This document shows positions 1 to 58,939 of a DNA stretch of 64,000 nt, piece after piece. Source of the DNA: Candidatus Saccharimonadales bacterium (GTDB lineage Bacteria > Patescibacteriota > Saccharimonadia > Saccharimonadales > DATKHC01); assembly GCA_038317055.1 (NCBI GenBank), contig JBBQBA010000001.1, positions 216,153-280,152 of the forward strand. The letters run 5' to 3'. A program made the position numbers and the translations under genes. Each line of letters starts with the position of its first letter. Position 1 is the stretch's first letter. Under the pieces are notes generated by a model. That model did not search any database and was not told the DNA's origin. It saw nothing but the letters and a program-made list of their open reading frames with translations.

Positions 1-1086
1 TGGTGGCAATGGATCGTCAGCTATTGCATTTTTATTAAGAGTTAGTCCAATTTTATCCAGTGCAGTCTCAGCGACTCCACCATCAATTTCAAACGAGCTA
101 TTAACATCGGCCAACATAAGATGATTATCAGTTCCACCAGTAATTAACTTGAAGTCTCTACTAAGTAGTTCAGTGCTTAGTACTTTGGCATTAAGAATAA
201 TCTGAGCAGCATAATTTTTAAAGTTTGGTTCTAGTGCCTCACCAAAAGCTACAGCCTTAGCAGCAATAGTATGCATGTGTGGACCACCCTGAATTCCAGG
301 AAATACCATTCGGTCAATTAAAGTAGGCAGGTTATCAATGGTTTTATCTACTTTACGAAGAGGATTACTGACAGTTCCCATGCTAAGTATCATTCCACCA
401 CGTGGCCCTCTGAGAGTTTTATGGGTAGTAGTTGTCATGACGTTAAAACCATAATCCAACGGATTTTTAGCTACCCCACCAGCAATTAATCCAGCTATAT
501 GCGCCATATCAGCCATTAACATAGCACCAACTTCCTTACCTATTTCTACAAATTTCTCATAATCTAGTTCTCTAGGATAAGCGCTAAATCCAGCTAGAAT
601 AATTTTAGGTTTATGTTTTATGGCAAGTTCCCTAAGATGCTCATAGTCTATTTCACCGGTTTCAATATTTTTCATGCCATATCGAATAAAATTATATTGA
701 TGAGCTAATATCGTAACTGGCGCACCATGTGTTAAGTGGCCACCATGGCTTAAATCCATTGCTAAAACTGTATCGCCAGGATCAAGCCATGCATGATATA
801 CCGCCTCATTAGCCTGGGCTCCAGAATGAGGTTGAACATTTGCATGGTCACTGTTAAATAATTTTTTCGCACGGTCAATTGCTAATTGTTCTACTTTGTC
901 TGTATTTTCTTGTCCACCATAATATCTTTTTCCAGGATAACCTTCTGAATATTTATTGGTAAACACGCTACCTAAGGCATTTAGTACATCACGACTTACA
1001 TAATTCTCTGATGGAATTAACTCAAGACCTTCACGTTGACGTTTTTCTTCTTTTTTGATTAGATCAGCAATGATTTTATCGTTCAT
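1..1086 (-). CDS. glyA: serine hydroxymethyltransferase; C-terminal end runs off the window start
   Basis: Own reverse translation from ATG at 1086-1084 gives [42 protein letters not shown]. The PLP-lysine motif [12 protein letters not shown] lies near 380-415. The frame stays open to position 1, so it is absent from the ORF track. Confidence 0.9.
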
Positions 1087-1238
1087 TTAACCCCTACAAG
1101 TTCTGATTTAATTAGCATAGTTATTGTAACAGTTAAGATAAGTATATGAGCAAAATTGGTAATGCCAAATAATAAAATTAGTATATACTTCGTATTAGCA
1201 TAAGCCTTAAAACAAACACCTAAAATATAATAAAATAC

Positions 1239-1275: not shown

Positions 1276-2796
1276 ATGGCAGAAACCAATGAGAAAATTG
1301 GCCAATTAATTTATCAGATAAGACAAGAACGCGGACTTACGCAGACCGAGTTTGCTAAACGACTAAAGACTAGCCAATCAGCGGTTAATAGAATAGAACA
1401 CGGAAAACAAAATTTAAGCTTAGATACACTTGGCAGAATCAGCGATGTACTGAACAAGCAATTAATAAGTTTAGAAGGACAAGGTATAAACCTACGTATC
1501 GAGGGAGGCTATGAACTGAGCGGAGAGATAACGCTCAAGACCAGCAAAAACTCAGCAGTAGCACTACTTTGTGCAAGCTTGTTAAATCACGGTGTAACTA
1601 AGTTTATATCTTTCCCGAGAATTGAAGAAGTATATAGAATTATTGAAGTCCTTGAAAGTATTGGCGTTCAAGTAAAATGGTTACCCGGAAACGATATTGA
1701 AATCCGTCGTCCGGCTAAACTAAATCTAGATAATATGAATAAAGAGGCTGCTAGAAAAACTCGTAGCGTTTTGATGTTTTTAGGTCCGCTGCTTCACGAA
1801 TATTCGGAATTCAAAATACCATATGCTGGTGGATGTAAACTCGGTCGGCGAACTGTTGAACCCCACTTATATGCCCTTGAGGAATTTGGATTAAATATAG
1901 TTGCGACAACCGGACACTACAACGTTACAGTTAAGAAAAAAAGTCCTGATGAGATGGTTTTATATGAATCTGGTAATACCGTAACTAATAATGTGTTGAT
2001 GGCGGCAGCCGGTTTTGAGAACACAACCTATGTTCAAGCGGCAAGTGGTGATTATATGGTTCAAGATCTATGTTATTACCTGCAAAAATTAGGGGTAAAA
2101 ATCGAAGGAATTGGATCACAGTTCTTAAAGATAACAGGCGTGAAAAATATTAAGAAAAAAGTAGTATACGCACCTACCGAAGATCCAATTGAAGCAATGT
2201 TTTTTACAGCTGCAGCAATAGCTACCAACTCATCAATTACTATTAAGCGTGTTCCATACAGATGGATTGCCTTAGAGTTGTTAAAACTAAAAAAGATGGG
2301 CTTAGAGTTTGAACAATCTCCAAGCTATAAAGCAAACAACAATGAAATAGACTTAACTGACATATTGATTAAAAAGCATAACGGCAAGCTACACGCGCTA
2401 GATGATAAAATACATCCTAATCTATATCCTGGATTGAACCCCGATAATATTCCCTACTTTGTTCCAATAGCAGCAGTTGCAAAAGGCAGAACCCTTATCC
2501 ATGATTGGATGTATGAAAATCGAGCAATATATTTCACGGAAATGTCTAAGATAGGTGTACAGATTGAACTTGCTGATCCTCATAGAGTTTTTATTACCGG
2601 TCCGACTAAGTTTTCTAAGGGTGATGTAGTATGCCCACCCGCCCTTCGACCAGCTAGTTTATTGTTAATTGGTATGCTTGCAGCTAACGGAATTAGCATT
2701 CTAAGAAATGTCTATACGATTAATCGAGGATATGAAGATTTAGCTGAACGATTAAATTCCCTGGGTGCAAGAATTAGCGTTCTTAAAGATATTTAG
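1276..2796 (+). CDS. murA: UDP-N-acetylglucosamine 1-carboxyvinyltransferase fused to an N-terminal XRE-type HTH domain
   Basis: The N-terminus IGQLIYQIRQERGLTQTEFAKRLKTSQSAVNRIEHGKQNLSLDTL is a Cro/C1 HTH. The rest carries MurA motifs: TSKNSAVALL, the catalytic Cys loop AGGCKLGRRTVEPH, and C-terminal INRGYEDLAERLNSLGA. Confidence 0.85.
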   Translation: MAETNEKIGQLIYQIRQERGLTQTEFAKRLKTSQSAVNRIEHGKQNLSLDTLGRISDVLNKQLISLEGQGINLRIEGGYELSGEITLKTSKNSAVALLCASLLNHGVTKFISFPRIEEVYRIIEVLESIGVQVKWLPGNDIEIRRPAKLNLDNMNKEAARKTRSVLMFLGPLLHEYSEFKIPYAGGCKLGRRTVEPHLYALEEFGLNIVATTGHYNVTVKKKSPDEMVLYESGNTVTNNVLMAAAGFENTTYVQAASGDYMVQDLCYYLQKLGVKIEGIGSQFLKITGVKNIKKKVVYAPTEDPIEAMFFTAAAIATNSSITIKRVPYRWIALELLKLKKMGLEFEQSPSYKANNNEIDLTDILIKKHNGKLHALDDKIHPNLYPGLNPDNIPYFVPIAAVAKGRTLIHDWMYENRAIYFTEMSKIGVQIELADPHRVFITGPTKFSKGDVVCPPALRPASLLLIGMLAANGISILRNVYTINRGYEDLAERLNSLGARISVLKDI

Positions 2797-2845
2797 TACT
2801 ACCACTTTCGTCCTTTTGGACTCATCAGCATAAATACACATTTAT

Positions 2846-3025
2846 GGAGTGGATGAAGCAGGCAGTATCGGGTTATGCGATTACGCACATCTTGGCGGGA
2901 TTAGATGTTTGTCGAATTAGACCTTCAGATCCCTGCCGGATCCCTGTCGGTTACTGCCCGAATCCAACGGGAAGGTCTAATTATCGCACACACACGACAC
3001 TGTTGTTCCTACTTCATCCACATCT
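2846..3025. ncRNA. candidate structured RNA; family and strand unassigned
   Basis: Nested perfect helices: a 10-bp helix 2849-2858/3012-3021, a 12-bp helix 2915-2926/2971-2982, and the hairpin GATCC-CTGCC-GGATC at 2928-2942. Hand-counted GC is about 47-53%, against 23-35% in lines sampled elsewhere. Confidence 0.3.
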
Positions 3026-3074
3026 TGTGAAGAAAATTATACTTTTCCTCATCGAATATGAAGAACTTGTGAAA

Positions 3075-3506
3075 CTAAATACGAGGGTATGGCTTTTTGC
3101 CACATATGTCCCCATTGACGAGTCGTTGAAATACTGAAGGTCCTGCATTGGAACCGTAAAGATTGTTATACTGATCCAGAAGGACAATTCCATCAGCCGT
3201 AAAAGTGACTTTCAGTTGGATGCCTTCCTCGACCAGAATACCTTTTTCACGAACTTTTGAAATGAATCCACATCCGCGATGAAGCTTTTCTGACAAGTAG
3301 TCCTTTGCGATTTTGACGCTCAAGAAGCTGCTCGCTCCAATTTCGTTGGAGTTGGGTACGTACAAGGTGCTTACTGCAAAGTTGACTAATCCCGACAGAA
3401 CTACGGGTGCAGGAATAGCAAGCTCTCTGAAATCGACGAAATCAGGATTTGTTACTTGGAGTTCCTCCACTTTCTTCTTACGGTCTGAAGCCAATTTAAC
3501 TGCCAT
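3075..3506 (-). CDS. hypothetical protein (orphan, ~143 aa)
   Basis: ORF track 3075..3512. I prefer the second ATG at 3506 because GAGGAAGCGAGGAA lies about 9 nt upstream. The composition is protein-like, but I recognise no motif. Confidence 0.55.
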   Translation of the reverse strand: MAVKLASDRKKKVEELQVTNPDFVDFRELAIPAPVVLSGLVNFAVSTLYVPNSNEIGASSFLSVKIAKDYLSEKLHRGCGFISKVREKGILVEEGIQLKVTFTADGIVLLDQYNNLYGSNAGPSVFQRLVNGDICGKKPYPRI

Positions 3507-3772
3507 ATGCATTTCCTCGCTTCCTCAACCAATCTCGCACTAAACCAGCTACGTGTGTCCCGATAACACATAAGGTGAGGCATAAAACCACAAAAATGAT
3601 GATCTTAAGTCTCACCTTATTAATACTGCCTGTTAAATTACCTCAAACAATATTAAACTCAACTCCTAAGAGGAATTCTAAATTGTAAGATTTATATATT
3701 TTACCATTTATAGCTTTTTTGTCAACTTATATAGTGCTTGAAGTTTTTTAGGGGGAGTAGAATAATGTAGAA

Positions 3773-4261
3773 ATGACTGAGAATATGAGACTGGTAAGCA
3801 TCGTTTTTCTTTTAAAAGAAGACAAGATATTGCTAGCAATGAAAAAACGAGGATTTGGCGAGGGGCTTTGGAATGGTGCAGGAGGAAAACAAGATTCTGG
3901 TGAGACTATTGTACAAACTGCAGTTCGAGAATGTCAGGAAGAAATATTTGTTACTCCGAAGGACATAGGGAAGGTAGCGGTTATTAATTTCTATTTTCCA
4001 CCAGAAAAAGCCGCACAAGGATTTAATCAACAGGCGCATGTTTATGTAAGTAAATCATGGACCGGAGAACCCAAAGAATCTGAAGAAATGCGACCAGAAT
4101 GGTTTGATGTGAGCTCTCTTCCTTACGATTCTATGTGGAGAGACGATACTTTCTGGTTACCTTTGGTTTTAGATGGCAAAAAGATAACTGCAGATTTTCA
4201 TTTTGATAATAATGATGAGGTTCTTAGTCATTCAATTAAAGAAGTAAAATCTTTTTCCTAA
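3773..4261 (+). CDS. Nudix hydrolase, MTH1/MutT-like (8-oxo-dGTP diphosphatase type)
   Basis: Nudix box GGKQDSGETIVQTAVRECQEEIFV. The preceding MKKRGFGEGLWNGAGGK resembles MTH1-type enzymes. Confidence 0.8.
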   Translation: MTENMRLVSIVFLLKEDKILLAMKKRGFGEGLWNGAGGKQDSGETIVQTAVRECQEEIFVTPKDIGKVAVINFYFPPEKAAQGFNQQAHVYVSKSWTGEPKESEEMRPEWFDVSSLPYDSMWRDDTFWLPLVLDGKKITADFHFDNNDEVLSHSIKEVKSFS

Positions 4262-4303: not shown

Positions 4304-4381
4304 TGGGGCGAGAGATGGGACTTGAACCCACGACCCCCGGAACCACAACCCGGTGCTCTAACCAGCTGAGCTACACTCGCC
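4304..4381 (-). tRNA. tRNA-His (GTG), CCA encoded
   Basis: Hand-folded cloverleaf. Anticodon loop TTGTGGT. Extra G-1 opposite C73, typical of tRNA-His. D arm TAGCTCAGCTGGTTAGAGC and T loop TTCAAGT. Confidence 0.93.
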
Positions 4382-4448: not shown

Positions 4449-5753
4449 TTAATATGTTCCGGTAGCAATGAAAGTAAGATTTGTTGTATAAACACCCGCA
4501 ACTGCAGTTGGAGCCACGTTACCAACGAAAGCTATTTCACCAGCAGCAACAGAACCGGCTGTAGCAGTAGCAATTTGAGAACCATAAGGGTTCGTTGTTG
4601 TATTTGCGGCATTAGCTGTGTCAAAACCAAAAGTTGCAGTTCCAACTCCACCTCCACCTCCAGTACCAGCTGTTTGAGAAGTAGTACTACAGTTACCACC
4701 ACCAGTATATGGTGCTACGGGAGTTATATTAGTAGTTGCACCGAAACTTGCCCAAGTACATAATCCAAATTGGCTATGTGATGAAGTGTTACCAATAACT
4801 GAAGTGTAAGCCGATCCAGCTGTTACACCCATACCGTCAACCGTATTATAGGCGATAGTGTTTGTGGTTGAAGGAATTGTTGGAGGTGGTCCCGTAAAAA
4901 CTATAGAAGCTCCAAGGGATGCGTTTGTCTGAATATCATATTTTGTTTGTATATCAACAAAAGGAGTAGATGAAAATAATACTCCGTTGGTATTACCTAG
5001 AGTTATAGTATTTCCTGTAGCACCTGAACAAGCCCCACCACCACCATCATAACTTGCAGTGTATACACAAAACGTAATCTGTTCCTGAACCTTAGCATTA
5101 ATAGTAATTTGTTGGACTACTGAAAGTGCAATACCTCCTGCATCGATAAGGCCAGCACCAGGTGTGCTACCTGATGTATAGGCGGTTCCATGAGCTTGAG
5201 TGTCAAATGTTAAAATTCGGGCATAAAATGAGCCAACTGTACTAGGGTTTACCACAGTATTTATGCTGAAAGTAATTGCTGTTGCAGATCCTGTTACTGT
5301 TTGAGCTGTAGCATTAGTTTCCCAAACCAGATTCTTAGCACCATTGAAAGTTGCACCCCAAGATCCAGTAGATGTTGAGAATCCCGTCGGAGTAGTAACA
5401 GTTGAACTCAGCATTGAAAAAGTTGGTGGTGCAGTACATGGATCTCCTATAATCGGATCGTTTGAACAAAAATCAACGTCTATAGCACCAAGGTTACCAG
5501 GTGCACCGGTCGTAAAAGGTTTAAAGGATACGAAGTACGTAGCAATACCAGTCGGACCAGCAACTGAACTAGACATGGTTATTGAACGGGATGAAACTAA
5601 ACCAACTGCTGATGCTGATATTGGAACCAAATTCGATCCTATTAATGTTGCCGTGAAAGCAATAACAGGAACCCAAGCTAACTTCTTAAATAGTCTTTTC
5701 TTTAAAAAACTGGAAACACCTGAATTTAAAACACTGATCTTCTGTTTAATCAT
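4449..5753 (-). CDS. secreted Gly/Thr/Ser/Ala-rich surface protein, function unknown
   Basis: 434-aa ORF. The N-terminal signal-like segment KKLAWVPVIAFTATLIGSNLVPISASAVG is followed by a low-charge, beta-rich composition. Confidence 0.7.
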   Translation of the reverse strand: MIKQKISVLNSGVSSFLKKRLFKKLAWVPVIAFTATLIGSNLVPISASAVGLVSSRSITMSSSVAGPTGIATYFVSFKPFTTGAPGNLGAIDVDFCSNDPIIGDPCTAPPTFSMLSSTVTTPTGFSTSTGSWGATFNGAKNLVWETNATAQTVTGSATAITFSINTVVNPSTVGSFYARILTFDTQAHGTAYTSGSTPGAGLIDAGGIALSVVQQITINAKVQEQITFCVYTASYDGGGGACSGATGNTITLGNTNGVLFSSTPFVDIQTKYDIQTNASLGASIVFTGPPPTIPSTTNTIAYNTVDGMGVTAGSAYTSVIGNTSSHSQFGLCTWASFGATTNITPVAPYTGGGNCSTTSQTAGTGGGGGVGTATFGFDTANAANTTTNPYGSQIATATAGSVAAGEIAFVGNVAPTAVAGVYTTNLTFIATGTY

Positions 5754-5898: not shown

Positions 5899-5975
5899 TG
5901 GTGCCCCGAGCAAGATTCGAACTTGCGACCTTGAGCTTAGAAGTCTCCTGCTCTATCCAGCTGAGCTATCGGGGC
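5899..5975 (-). tRNA. tRNA-Arg (TCT), CCA encoded
   Basis: Hand fold: acceptor GCCCCGA/TCGGGGC, anticodon loop CTTCTAA, T loop TTCGAAT. The anticodon stem has two terminal mismatches. Confidence 0.85.
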
Positions 5976-6139: not shown

Positions 6140-8011
6140 TTGAAGTCTATTTTTAATTTTTTTAAGTCATACAAGCTGCTCAGTTTTGTAATTGTTAGCT
6201 TCGTTGTAAGTCTAATTTTATGGCTATTATCCTATCATCTTATTAGTAATTGGATTCTTGGAATTAGTGTAATCATTGCTGTTATTCCCCTACTTGTAGA
6301 TATGTTCACAGACCTAAGGAGCGGTAAATATGGAATAGACATATTAGCTGCAACGGCTATGATCGCCTCTGTTGCATTGGGTCAATATTGGACCGGTATT
6401 ATTATTGCTTTAATGCTTACTGGCGGAGAAGGTCTAGAGGATTATGCAGAAAACAGAGCTAAGTCAGAACTTACAGCCTTACTTCAACGACGACCTACGA
6501 TTGCTCACTTAATAAAGGGTAAAAATACAACTGATGTTAATGTAAAACATATAAAAGTTGGTGATAGAATCAGTATTCTACCCGGTGAAGTAGTACCAGT
6601 TGATGGAATTATATTCGATGGTATATCCAGTTTTGATGAATCTAGTCTAACGGGTGAATCACTACCTGTAGATAAAAAGAATGGTGATCAAATACTAAGT
6701 GGTTCTATCAATATAGAAGGCTCAATTATAGTTAAAGTAATTCGAACCGAAGAGAACAGTCAGTATGCTCAAATAATAAAACTCGTTAAAGCTGCTTCAC
6801 TGAGTGAATCTCCTTTTGTAAGACTTGCTGATCGATATTCAATACCATTTACTGCTGTTGCCTTTCTAATTGCAGGAAGCGTTTGGTTTGTATCTGGACA
6901 CGCTATAAGATTTTTAGAAGTAATAGTTGTTGCGACGCCATGTCCATTACTACTTGCTGCTCCTATTGCTTTAATATCTGGAATGAGTCGAGCTTCAAAG
7001 CACGGAATTATAATAAAAAATGGTTCAGCTATAGAGCGATTAGCCGAAGTTAAAACTGTCGCCTTTGATAAAACCGGAACTCTAACTAATGGCAAACCGG
7101 TAGTTGAAAATCTTGAAGTTTTTAATAAATTTACTAAATCCGACGTACTAAAATATGCAGCAAGTTTAGAACAAAACTCAAATCACATCCTAGCTAGTGC
7201 GATAGTTGCATATTCTACCCAACAAAAAATCAAGTCACGTTCAGCGAAACAAGTAAAAGAACAAGCTGGACTTGGATTAAGTGGACGACTGCAAGGTAAA
7301 CATATCCTAATAGGACGCTGGGATTTAATGAGTGACAACAATATAAATTCACCAAAGAATTTTAAGCCTAATACTCAAAAATCTACTTCTACCTATATTG
7401 CTATTGATGGTGAGCTTGCTGGGGTTTTTAGCTTCATAGATGAGCTTAGACCAAACAGTAAATTAATGATTAGTCGGTTGAAAAATTTAGGTATCAAAAA
7501 CTTCCTTATGATAACTGGTGATCATATGACAGCTGCGAAAAATATAGCAAGTAAACTTGGTATCGATAACATTGTAGCCTCTGCCTTACCATCAGATAAA
7601 ATGCGAACTATCGAAGATATACCAAAAAACGAACGTCCACTTGCATTTGTGGGTGATGGTGTTAATGATGCACCAGTTCTGACACTAGCAGATGTAGGTA
7701 TAGCTCTCGGTGCCAAAGGATCAACAGCTGCAAGCGAAGCCGCGGATGTAGTAATAATGCTCGATGATATAAATAAAGTAGCCAGTGCACTAGAAATAGC
7801 TAAGAGAACCTTTTATATAGCCAAACAAAGTATTCTTATTGGAATATTTATAAGTATTGGTTTAATGGTAATCTTTGCAACTGGTCGGATCAAACCTATT
7901 TATGGAGCTATACTCCAAGAATTAGTCGATGTATTTGTTATCTTTAATGCTTTAAGAGCACATGGTGCTTGGCAAAAGATCAAAAATTCAAAAAACGAAG
8001 CTAGTTTATAA
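6140..8011 (+). CDS. heavy-metal translocating P-type (P1B) ATPase without an N-terminal metal-binding domain
   Basis: DKTGTLT phosphorylation site, GDGVNDAP hinge, TGES-like TGESLP, and the transmembrane motif TPCPLL. TTG start preceded by GAGG. Confidence 0.9.
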   Translation: MKSIFNFFKSYKLLSFVIVSFVVSLILWLLSYHLISNWILGISVIIAVIPLLVDMFTDLRSGKYGIDILAATAMIASVALGQYWTGIIIALMLTGGEGLEDYAENRAKSELTALLQRRPTIAHLIKGKNTTDVNVKHIKVGDRISILPGEVVPVDGIIFDGISSFDESSLTGESLPVDKKNGDQILSGSINIEGSIIVKVIRTEENSQYAQIIKLVKAASLSESPFVRLADRYSIPFTAVAFLIAGSVWFVSGHAIRFLEVIVVATPCPLLLAAPIALISGMSRASKHGIIIKNGSAIERLAEVKTVAFDKTGTLTNGKPVVENLEVFNKFTKSDVLKYAASLEQNSNHILASAIVAYSTQQKIKSRSAKQVKEQAGLGLSGRLQGKHILIGRWDLMSDNNINSPKNFKPNTQKSTSTYIAIDGELAGVFSFIDELRPNSKLMISRLKNLGIKNFLMITGDHMTAAKNIASKLGIDNIVASALPSDKMRTIEDIPKNERPLAFVGDGVNDAPVLTLADVGIALGAKGSTAASEAADVVIMLDDINKVASALEIAKRTFYIAKQSILIGIFISIGLMVIFATGRIKPIYGAILQELVDVFVIFNALRAHGAWQKIKNSKNEASL

Positions 8012-33179: not shown

Positions 33180-33256
33180 TGGAGGGCCCAGTGAGACTTG
33201 AACTCACGACACCCTGCTTAAAAGGCAGGTGCTCTAACCAGCTGAGCTATGGGCCC
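33180..33256 (-). tRNA. tRNA-Lys (TTT), CCA encoded
   Basis: Hand fold: acceptor GGGCCCA/TGGGCCC, anticodon loop CTTTTAA, T arm GTGAG-TTCAAGT-CTCAC. Confidence 0.93.
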
Positions 33257-48746: not shown

Positions 48747-49259
48747 ATGAAGCGTCTTTATTTTATGCGGCATGGTTTATCCATCTATAATCAGAACGGC
48801 AAGTTCAGTGGGCGAATAGATTCACCTCTTACTGACGAAGGCAGAGATGATGTTAGAAAAAATGCAGAATCTTTAAAGGATTTGAATATAGATATTATTG
48901 TTGCGTCTCCGCTTAGTCGAGCTATTGAATCTGCACAAATAATTGCAGAAGTAATCGGATATCCCAAAAATAAGATATTAATTAATGATCTGTTCTCTGA
49001 GCGTGATTTTGGCGTACTTGAGGGTACCCCCTACACTCCACTTGCTGTTCATGATGAAGTTGAAGATATCGAAAGTGTTGAAGATTTAATTCACCGAGCC
49101 CAGAAAGGATTTGATTACCTTAATACCTTAAAGGGTGATGACATACTTCTTGTTAGTCATGGTTCGTTAGGTCGAGCTCTACGATATGTAATTTCTCAAG
49201 AACACCCCTTTGAGCATCCGGCTAGATTTAAAAATGCCGAAATAGTCACTTTAATATAA
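48747..49259 (+). CDS. histidine phosphatase (phosphoglycerate mutase) family protein
   Basis: RHGLS catalytic motif, SPLSRA, and a late SHG. Confidence 0.8.
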   Translation: MKRLYFMRHGLSIYNQNGKFSGRIDSPLTDEGRDDVRKNAESLKDLNIDIIVASPLSRAIESAQIIAEVIGYPKNKILINDLFSERDFGVLEGTPYTPLAVHDEVEDIESVEDLIHRAQKGFDYLNTLKGDDILLVSHGSLGRALRYVISQEHPFEHPARFKNAEIVTLI

Positions 49260-49322: not shown

Positions 49323-49399
49323 GGCGGCGTAGCTCAGCTGGTTAGAGCGCAGGACTCATAAGCCTGAGGTCATAGGTTCAAGTCCTATCGCCGCTACCA
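49323..49399 (+). tRNA. tRNA with CAT anticodon, elongator type (probably Met), CCA encoded
   Basis: Hand fold: acceptor GGCGGCG/CGCCGCT (G1-U72), anticodon loop CTCATAA, D loop AGCTGGTTA. Met versus Ile2 is not resolved. Confidence 0.88.
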
Positions 49400-58863: not shown

Positions 58864-58939
58864 TGGTGGGGCTGGTTGGGTTCGAACCAACGACCAATCG
58901 GTTATGAGCCGACTGCTCTAACCACTGAGCTACAGCCCC
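58864..58939 (-). tRNA. tRNA with CAT anticodon, elongator type (possibly tRNA-Ile2/lysidine), CCA encoded
   Basis: Hand fold: acceptor GGGGCTG/CAGCCCC. The anticodon arm GTCGG-CTCATAA-CCGAT and the D arm and variable loop resemble E. coli ileX as I recall it. Confidence 0.88.

Follow-up and report, generated by a model that had tools for sequence, protein, structure and literature searches.

A single-gene cassette with a type III hammerhead ribozyme at its 3′ end beside murA in a Saccharimonadales genome, and its relatives in metagenomes

Hammerhead ribozymes are known from bacterial mRNAs. In prophages they flank single genes or small gene groups whose identity is variable, ardA included (Perreault et al. 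2011, PMC3088659), and the role of the thousands of bacterial hammerheads is, according to a review, still undetermined (PMC6765202). Here we analyse a stretch of 64,000 nucleotides (the window) from the Candidatus Saccharimonadales bacterium (TM7, candidate phyla radiation) assembly GCA_038317055.1 (contig JBBQBA010000001.1, positions 216,153 to 280,152), in which a first-pass annotation had pointed to a multi-helix RNA candidate next to an open reading frame (ORF) at 2797-3620. This insert is a single self-contained, monocistronic expression unit on the minus strand, made up of a strong, near-consensus promoter, a structured leader, a small and fast-evolving ORF, a folded 3′ untranslated region (3′ UTR) and a type III hammerhead ribozyme. 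It belongs to a large family of units that share one frame and carry different cargo: a promoter, a 5′ hairpin (P1), a segment A that is the complement of the bases immediately preceding the ribozyme (A′), one ORF and no terminator. The cassette in the window has all parts of this frame, which was previously undescribed.

The ribozymes resemble the type III hammerheads of Rfam (RF00008, clan CL00010) in their full core, open stem III, capped stems I and II, A15.1-U16.1 pair and NUH cleavage site. Unlike these, the subfamily described here is very uniform, stays below threshold and is chromosomal in Saccharibacteria-like contigs instead of belonging to viroids, satellites or eukaryotic repeats. 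With the prophage hammerheads (PMC3088659) it shares that ribozymes delimit variable genes, with the anti-defence gene ardA there and Tad4-like cargo here, and that an mRNA-processing role has been suggested for both. It differs in that each unit has one ribozyme, at the 3′ end only, and its own promoter, and in that the frame includes a covarying 5′-3′ complementary pair and a 5′ hairpin. Moreover, a degenerate pattern search of Joint Genome Institute (JGI) metagenomes found at least 120 hammerhead stretches of this subfamily, whereas the same pattern had no match in 2.9 million viral contigs.

Phage morons are self-contained units of promoter, gene and end that lie between unrelated genes and have a deviant composition; they end in terminators. 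RiboJ is a synthetic insulating ribozyme part that gives context-independent expression and sits at the 5′ end. Both are like the present units in self-containment or insulation, and unlike them in being without a natural 5′-3′ clamp of the kind proposed here. Integron gene cassettes are promoterless ORFs with an attC site that are arrayed by intI, whereas the units here have, by inspection, their own promoters and mostly a single ribozyme. In the open-access literature we found no paper linking hammerheads with Saccharibacteria or Patescibacteria, no discussion of RAGATH-10 (a motif found in one family member, see below) and no description of this type III subfamily in Saccharibacteria, of the A/A′ pair, of the 5′ hairpin or of the cargo-specific 3′ domain.

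The hammerhead and the cassette in the window

The Rfam search proposed as a check in the first-pass annotation reports, at gathering thresholds, only tRNAs across the whole window. A permissive scan finds no family for the folded 3′ domain or the leader; what it finds instead, at 2835-2791 of the minus strand, is a sub-threshold hammerhead match aligned as type I, which at 25.2 bits (E = 0.0015) is the best in the clan but falls short of the cut-off of 34. We rejected the type I reading because it needs an impossible 1-nt loop in stem III, while the type III reading covaries and is exactly the minimum free energy (MFE) fold of the isolated 64 nt. The complete catalytic core is present (C3 U4 G5 A6 N7 G8 A9 ... 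G12 A13 A14, with C at H17), stems I and II are loop-closed and stem III is open, as in the type III layout, and our own covariance model (R1) scores the element at 81.9 bits. That the Rfam gathering score is not reached is a failure of threshold and not of structure. By core sequence and covariation, the element is a type III hammerhead. The first-pass annotation had overlooked both the minus strand and this ribozyme, which falls within the interval it reported and shares bases with the closing helix (3′ arm) of its RNA candidate. The parts of the cassette, in transcript order, are the following:

3698-3725, minus strand: sigma-70-type promoter, TTGACA, 16 nt, TG-n-TAAAAT (11/12 consensus matches plus an extended -10 TG)
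3633-3690, minus strand: candidate 5′-terminal leader segment, at the position of the P1 hairpin of other cassettes; its exact fold in the window is uncertain
3623-3632, minus strand: segment A, CAGGCAGUAU, exact complement of A′
3570-3620, minus strand: leader hairpin, 5′ arm AAGGUGAG (3618-3611), 3′ arm CUCACCUU (3579-3572)
3551-3569, minus strand: second leader hairpin, GUGUU-loop-(G)ACAC, five stem pairs invariant in four sequences
3513-3526, minus strand: tandem Shine-Dalgarno sequence, GAGGAAGCGAGGAA
3075-3512, minus strand: cargo gene for a putative protein of 145 aa (start at ATG 3512) or 143 aa (start at ATG 3506; P0001)
2849-3021, minus strand: multi-helix 3′-UTR domain (the RNA candidate), 173 nt, fold z = -7.8
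3021-3008 / 2862-2849, minus strand: basal helix, 14 bp
2982-2971 / 2926-2915, minus strand: central arm with the 12-bp helix
2907-2888, minus strand: small hairpin CAUCU..AGAUG
2887-2876, minus strand: small hairpin UGCG-UAAU-CGCA
2859-2868, minus strand: segment A′, AUACUGCCUG, adjoining on its 3′ side the arm of the 10-bp closing helix
2800-2854, minus strand: type III hammerhead ribozyme (sub-threshold Rfam match, MFE fold, model R1, covariation)
2852-2848 / 2806-2802, minus strand: stem III, CCACU / AGUGG
after C2847, minus strand: predicted cleavage site (NUH site CUC)
2846-2829, minus strand: stem I, CAUAAAU-GUGU-AUUUAUG
2828-2822, minus strand: core CUGAUGA
2821-2810, minus strand: stem II, GUCC-AAAA-GGAC
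2809-2807, minus strand: core GAA

The promoter thus runs from 3725 to 3698, the ORF from 3512 or 3506 to 3075, the 3′ domain from 3021 to 2849 and the hammerhead from 2854 to 2800. The 191 nt at 2840-3030 fold at -80.3 kcal/mol on the minus strand (z = -7.8) compared to -64.1 kcal/mol on the plus strand (z = -3.6). Because the minus-strand fold is far more stable, we place the structured RNA on the same strand as the ORF. A scan for promoter-like or terminator-like sites between ORF and ribozyme found none, and no intrinsic terminator (G+C-rich hairpin with U-tract) is found on either strand in 2797-3075. The same order of parts in two related contigs (L201 and L203, see below) supports one transcription unit.

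Transfer-messenger RNA (tmRNA), signal recognition particle RNA, 6S RNA, RNase P RNA and riboswitches have no gathering-score match in the window and none at E up to 10 in 2700-3750; ARAGORN, too, reports no tmRNA in the window. Model R1 also gives a weak match at 49031-49080 on the plus strand (14.8 bits, E of about 1) with a broken core (UGAUGA--AG), which is probably due to chance. Sub-threshold matches to the Rfam model 'Plastid-ycf2 5UTR' at 33182-33256, 5901-5975 and 58866-58939 (plus strand) and at 49323-49397 (minus strand) are exactly antisense to tRNA genes and are model artefacts.

The cargo protein has no Pfam, PHROG or NCBIfam match, in line with the absence of a recognised motif noted earlier. 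An exhaustive HMMER search of 1.84 billion representatives found three homologues only (53, 43 and 36% identity); no further one was found among 5.8 billion clusters, a profile search added none, and a word-based protein search returned only the cargo itself. The gene is therefore not a strict orphan, as first proposed, having three distant homologues, although it does lack any annotation match. The contigs of the three homologues (L201, L202 and L203) carry the same cassette, which in two of them visibly adjoins murA. In L201 the order is that of the window (tRNA-His, NUDIX, cassette, murA) and in L203 murA directly follows the ribozyme, while L202 is a fragment whose contig ends about 90 nt into the 3′ domain; the 3′ domain is complete in two of the three (L201 and L203). 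At third codon positions, murA of the relatives is only 48-50% identical to that of the window, so the conserved non-coding sequence of the cassette must be under selection. A recent swap of cargo between near-identical strains, suggested by the 99% MurA identity in L203, was rejected on the same ground, the third codon positions being only about 50% identical.

These relatives show how the 3′ domain is conserved. The closing helix reported as 10 bp (2849-2858 / 3012-3021) is present and extends to 14 nt with 93% complementarity (2849-2862 / 3008-3021), the 12-bp helix (2915-2926 / 2971-2982) is a perfect match, and both small hairpins (2876-2887 and 2888-2907) exist as described and are conserved in two related contigs. 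The bases of the suggested CTGCC/GGCAG pseudoknot are there, but on reading by eye L201 and L203 have no matching complementary loop. Among the window, L201 and L203, 14/14 pairs of the basal helix are kept with three double-sided changes, and three further changes pass through G-U, which pairs on the minus strand only (A-C on the other strand). The covariation that had been asked of the helices is thus found for the closing helix, whereas the central arm, which holds the 12-bp helix, varies between relatives, both small hairpins being kept. The hairpin AGAUGUGCGUAAUCGCAUAA is identical in L201 in spite of the divergence at murA third codon positions. Because the basal helix and small hairpins are kept together with the same cargo, we regard the RNA candidate as a conserved 3′-UTR domain specific to this cargo family.

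At the other end of the unit, the promoter is kept in L201 and L203 (TTGACA and TGGTAnnAT), and transcription would start near 3690. The sequence ATCTTACA directly after the -10 box is conserved, both in the alignment with L201 and in L203. The 10-mer of A and A′ occurs in these two copies only in 64 kb (0.13 expected), and the two segments covary: A of the window is CAGGCAGTAT, compared to CAGATAGCA / TGCTATCTG in L201 and CAGACAGAGT / ACACTGTCTG in L203. A′ has two possible pairings, one with the distant A and a less perfect one inside the basal helix.

The 8-bp inverted repeat noted in the first pass upstream of the ORF (AAGGTGAG at 3572-3579 and CTCACCTT at 3611-3618) is the core of 21-nt arms with 81% complementarity. 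This leader hairpin is common to the window, L203 and L013 (a murA locus described below), with covariation in the upper stem. Its 3′ arm is an anti-Shine-Dalgarno sequence with a possible alternative partner, GGUUGAGG, at the ribosome-binding site. When the truncated leader of L202 is folded, CCUCACC pairs with GGUUGAGG, while full leaders favour the upstream hairpin, and the two states may form a hairpin/anti-Shine-Dalgarno switch. In L201 the leader is nearly identical to that of the window despite the roughly 50% murA third-codon-position identity, and GGTTGAGGAAGCGAGG of the tandem Shine-Dalgarno is kept.

The ORF described in the first pass is confirmed, with its stop at 3075, its ATG at 3506, a further ATG at 3512 and, at 3526-3513, a tandem Shine-Dalgarno (GAGGAA). 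Each of the two GAGGAA boxes lies 8 nt before one of the two in-frame ATGs, so translation could begin at either; the protein in the database has its start at 3506. The ORF is intact in the relatives, and judging by the differences at the three codon positions among the homologues (0.42 / 0.27 / 0.69), which follow a coding substitution pattern, it is under coding selection. The structure prediction and profile search suggested for the 143-aa protein were less informative: AlphaFold2 models are meaningless (predicted local distance difference test of 30.5 without an alignment and 39.0 with four sequences), and a profile search against PDB sequences gave a chance match only (E = 0.5).

The gain in G+C seen in the first pass is real: 48.9% at 2841-3020 and 43.8% at 3141-3380, and 2797-3620 has, at 43.6%, the highest G+C of any 824-nt stretch in the window. 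The 23-35% given for the remainder is not, since the mean of the window is 36.3% and 23-35% is too low for coding DNA. The insert does adjoin murA, here a fusion of a helix-turn-helix domain to MurA (1276-2796, plus strand). On the other side it was said to border tRNA-His, but a NUDIX gene (3773-4261, plus strand) intervenes and tRNA-His (4304-4380) lies past it. As for the proposal of a horizontally acquired RNA-plus-protein module, the RNA and the ORF do occur together in 3/3 related contigs that could be found, and the composition is foreign; recent acquisition does not follow, because the cassette adjoins murA in two other contigs whose murA third codon positions are only about 50% identical to the window. 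The interval 2780-3700 has no blastn match in phage and plasmid collections.

The wider cassette family

With MurA as query, we collected 80 loci (L001-L080) from Saccharimonadales metagenome-assembled genomes, at 72-78% identity. The same hammerhead is found in 2/80 of these, and the cassette is absent from the other 78. For example, the hammerhead of L013 matches that of the window in its position beside murA and in its orientation; L013 has a homologous leader and an unrelated ORF (BLASTP E = 38), and is without the large 3′ domain. In the first three hammerhead sequences 94% of cells were paired and 7/17 pairs had compensatory changes. Within the subgroup that has the cargo of the window, stem III has been rebuilt with compensating changes: it is CCACU/AGUGG in the window, CUACAAU/AUUGUAG in L201 and ACUUCU/AGAAGU in L203.

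With the exception of three, and of one or two weak variants, the JGI matches listed are clean members. Stems I and II are near-constant in the family (consensus CAUGAAU-GUGU-RUUCAUG and GUCC-AAAA-GGAC) and stem III varies freely; the core was fixed in the collecting pattern, and it is also conserved in every R1 match. In an alignment of 101 sequences, 96.3% of cells are paired, 12/17 pairs covary and 342 cells carry double changes, values that 0/500 shuffles reach. The pairs A15.1-U16.1 and G10.1-C11.1 are invariant (101/101), whereas at the top of stem I 48 of the 101 have U-A and 46 have U-G, which pairs on this strand only. In the instances read, H17 is C, A or U. The conserved GUGU and AAAA loops, together with the top of stem I, hint at a tertiary contact between stems I and II.

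Current annotation misses these ribozymes. Relatives align as type III in Rfam with scores from 40.7 (L101) to 45.7 (L201), compared to a type III cut-off of 48.5, and none of the roughly 40 instances checked in 37 loci reaches any Rfam hammerhead gathering score, which amounts to an annotation blind spot. Some flanking proteins are 50-74% identical to Saccharimonadales proteins, and at least part of the family accordingly comes from that lineage.

The frame recurs around very different genes. A and A′ are perfect reverse complements over at least 10 nt (10-17 nt) in 34/83 units, compared to 1/83, 4/83 and 0/65 in controls. A lies 150-1500 nt upstream of A′, and in nearly all units no more than about 7 nt separate the end of A′ from the ribozyme. 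From unit to unit the sequences differ widely, and the helices are sharply bounded. The P1 hairpin lies downstream of a sigma-70-type promoter and ends 2-8 nt before A. Since a -10 box is found 30-80 nt before A in 32/38 units, A is likely to be transcribed. The stretch from A to A′ usually holds a single ORF that has a Shine-Dalgarno sequence and is followed by a 3′ UTR with a median of 97 nt. Terminator-like sites precede the ribozyme in 5/38 units and follow it in 3/38.

The cargo is diverse: 96 ORFs fall into 85 clusters, and about 80 of 94 have no Pfam domain. The G+C of the unit exceeds that of its flanks in 29/35 units (mean +7.2 points, p = 7e-8). One cargo (L102 267-629, 69 bits) matches Pfam PF25186, Tad4, an inhibitor of type I Thoeris, and two more (L117 1201-2016 and L182 999-1697) are Tad4-like just below the cut-off, hinting that some cassettes carry anti-defence genes.

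Two ribozymes are found in 3 of about 100 loci, the rest having one. L117 carries two complete cassettes in tandem (hammerheads at 383-437 and 1045-1099, minus strand) between two tRNA-Gly genes on the same strand; the other two loci are L121 (4172-4226 and 7662-7716, plus strand) and L167 (779-833, plus strand, and 5225-5279, minus strand). A preference for sites next to tRNA genes was considered and dropped, as the 13/105 units within 2 kb of a tRNA equal the background density. In L194 (1-3179), a cassette with its hammerhead at 1478-1532 (minus strand) lies inside the 16S-23S rRNA spacer, on the opposite strand and beside two tRNAs; the start of this 23S gene has two long insertions relative to the Rfam model.

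The leader of L101 holds a true RAGATH-10 (RF03147, 69 bits) between A and the start codon, and its closing stem contains the ribosome-binding site. The window leader may be comparable in that CCUCACCU has two possible partners, AAGGUGAG upstream and GGUUGAGG downstream; it is unlike RAGATH-10 in having two inner hairpins and not three. The RAGATH-10 model has no match in the window leader (E up to 10) or in L201-L203 (E up to 5), and among the 37 loci scanned it occurs in L101 only. RAGATH-10 is a curated motif, reportedly from Weinberg et al. 2017, and to our knowledge it has no known function.

Possible roles of the ribozyme and the A/A′ pair

The reading that we favour, with a probability of roughly 0.6, is that of a ribozyme-terminated, end-clamped mRNA cassette. 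The hammerhead would cut the nascent transcript after C2847 and so define the mRNA 3′ end, replacing an intrinsic terminator. This mature end would then read ...CUUCAUCCAC-UC with a 2′,3′-cyclic phosphate, 2 nt beyond the closing helix, and would be locked, its last ten paired bases closing the 3′-UTR domain. A′, the ten bases before the closing arm, could pair with segment A in the 5′ leader, so that both mRNA ends would be held in duplexes. The downstream fragment, antisense to murA, would have a 5′-hydroxyl and be unprotected. The net effect, and presumably the purpose, would be a stable, insulated message with expression independent of the genomic surroundings, to which the leader hairpin and anti-Shine-Dalgarno would add translational control. 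More tentatively, Saccharibacteria, and perhaps other candidate-phyla bacteria, might use the frame of P1, A/A′ and type III hammerhead to express a fast-turnover pool of orphan genes, some of them maybe anti-defence or host-interaction factors.

Several observations weigh against an end-clamped, stabilised message. Bacterial mRNAs that lose their 3′ terminator hairpin normally become less stable, so cleavage might just as well reduce expression. In the window, stem III (5′ strand) and the closing helix (3′ arm) share bases; the full 3′ domain and stem III both need CCAC, and once stem III forms the predicted fold is less stable by 8 kcal/mol (-276.4 vs -284.4), so that cleavage here could be slow or regulated. 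The loops of stems I and II (GUGU, AAAA) are short. About half of the family members are without a perfect A/A′ match, and wobble pairs (G-U vs A-C counts) cannot tell RNA pairing of A and A′ from inverted repeats at the DNA level.

The competition for CCAC is also the starting point of the main rival, in which the ribozyme exerts negative or conditional control: the 3′ domain would hold the stem III strand until a signal (a protein, perhaps the cargo, or A/A′ pairing) frees it, and cleavage would lead to mRNA decay, comparable to glmS and engineered 3′-UTR ribozymes. The lower stability of the ribozyme-competent fold fits this idea, as does the A/A′ pairing that arises unimposed in the best fold once stem III is forced; the strictly conserved hairpin AGAUGUGCGUAAUCGCAUAA resembles a sequence-specific site, and 3′-UTR ribozymes have been reported to lower expression (PMC6765202). 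However, closing helix and stem III overlap by only about 2 nt in L201 and L203, so the competition is not a conserved feature, most family members have no 3′ domain at all, and no ligand or protein partner is known. We consider this explanation unlikely. Rather improbable, in our estimate, is that A and A′ act as DNA-level terminal inverted repeats of a mobile or invertible cassette, with a recombinase moving or flipping the ORF between a fixed promoter and the ribozyme. Perfect, sharply bounded repeats of 10-17 bp do flank a single ORF, many units share the same repeat sequence (TGACAAGCAGA), the cargo is extremely diverse and shifted in G+C, and the window and L013 share leader and hammerhead at the murA site while their cargo differs. 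Nevertheless, the units have no recombinase or transposase, 15 groups of the same cassette from different metagenomes show no inversion, and the repeats lie inside the transcribed region. Across the family the repeat sequence differs widely while complementarity is kept, which fits base pairing better than recognition by a protein.

Two further explanations concern the structured stretch itself. Its position between the convergent murA (plus strand) and ORF (minus strand), and the fact that both strands fold better than shuffles, would suit a bidirectional terminator or a 3′-end hairpin shared by the two genes; we think this very improbable, given that there is no U-tract on either side, that the terminator scan is empty there, that the stretch is a 173-nt multi-branched domain with conserved unpaired sequence, and that the minus strand is far more stable and alone accommodates the G-U pairs. 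Least plausible of all is an independent small RNA gene, either a housekeeping RNA or a small RNA derived from the 3′ UTR, with a function of its own. The structure is strongly conserved and no Rfam family matches it, but it was found in three other contigs only, each time downstream of the same rare protein gene, it lacks its own promoter, and blastn and tblastn searches with the 3′ domain, leader and ORF found nothing above chance in 200 other loci that we fetched, whereas a housekeeping RNA would be widespread. The unclassified housekeeping RNA offered by the first-pass annotation is thus not a free-standing RNA: the structured RNA is the 3′ UTR of the ORF mRNA, on the minus strand, with the hammerhead directly after it. 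We also rejected a circular RNA of the viroid, retrozyme or Obelisk type with a rod fold of the whole unit, because there is one ribozyme only, the transcript outside it is weakly structured (z = -2.7) and three contigs encode the unit in DNA, beside murA.

If Saccharibacteria do use the frame in this general way, ribozyme-made mRNAs with clamped ends that replace terminators would be the first defined general job for bacterial hammerheads. The family offers a uniform and abundant test case, with a hammerhead at the 3′ end of a terminator-less single-gene unit and directly after a segment complementary to the leader, and its frame yields falsifiable predictions on 3′-end formation, mRNA half-life and insulation from neighbours. 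The cassettes also mark a pool of rapidly evolving, mostly unannotated genes in an ultra-small epibiotic lineage, of which at least one family resembles a phage anti-defence protein.

Neighbourhood of murA

In the 80 collected loci, the usual 3′ neighbour of murA is a tRNA-Gly/Arg/His cluster with variable inserts between. Directly after murA, L038 has a weak hammerhead-like match at 7680-7749 (minus strand, 14 bits) in which CUGAUGAG is intact and GCAAAA stands instead of CGAAA, perhaps the decayed remains of a copy at the site occupied in the window. Downstream of murA in L052 (7540-9300, plus strand) lies an island of 57% G+C with three cassette-like units that encode small membrane proteins. 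Each unit has CGACAAGTAAAC in the leader, GTTTACTTGTC at the 3′ end and a GAGAGGGAGTGG..CCACTCCCTCTC hairpin; an intact hammerhead ends the middle unit only, and the third has a degenerate CAGATGAG.

MurA of the window carries an N-terminal XRE-type helix-turn-helix at residues 9-63, and the full-length fusion is found in 80/80 loci; a DNA-binding domain on a cell-wall enzyme is unusual. Finally, between tRNA-His and tRNA-Arg, the window encodes at 4449-5753 (minus strand) a 434-aa protein rich in Gly, Thr and Ser, which weakly matches (E = 0.0012, below the cut-off) the C-terminal domain of the candidate-phyla Pam pilus pilin.

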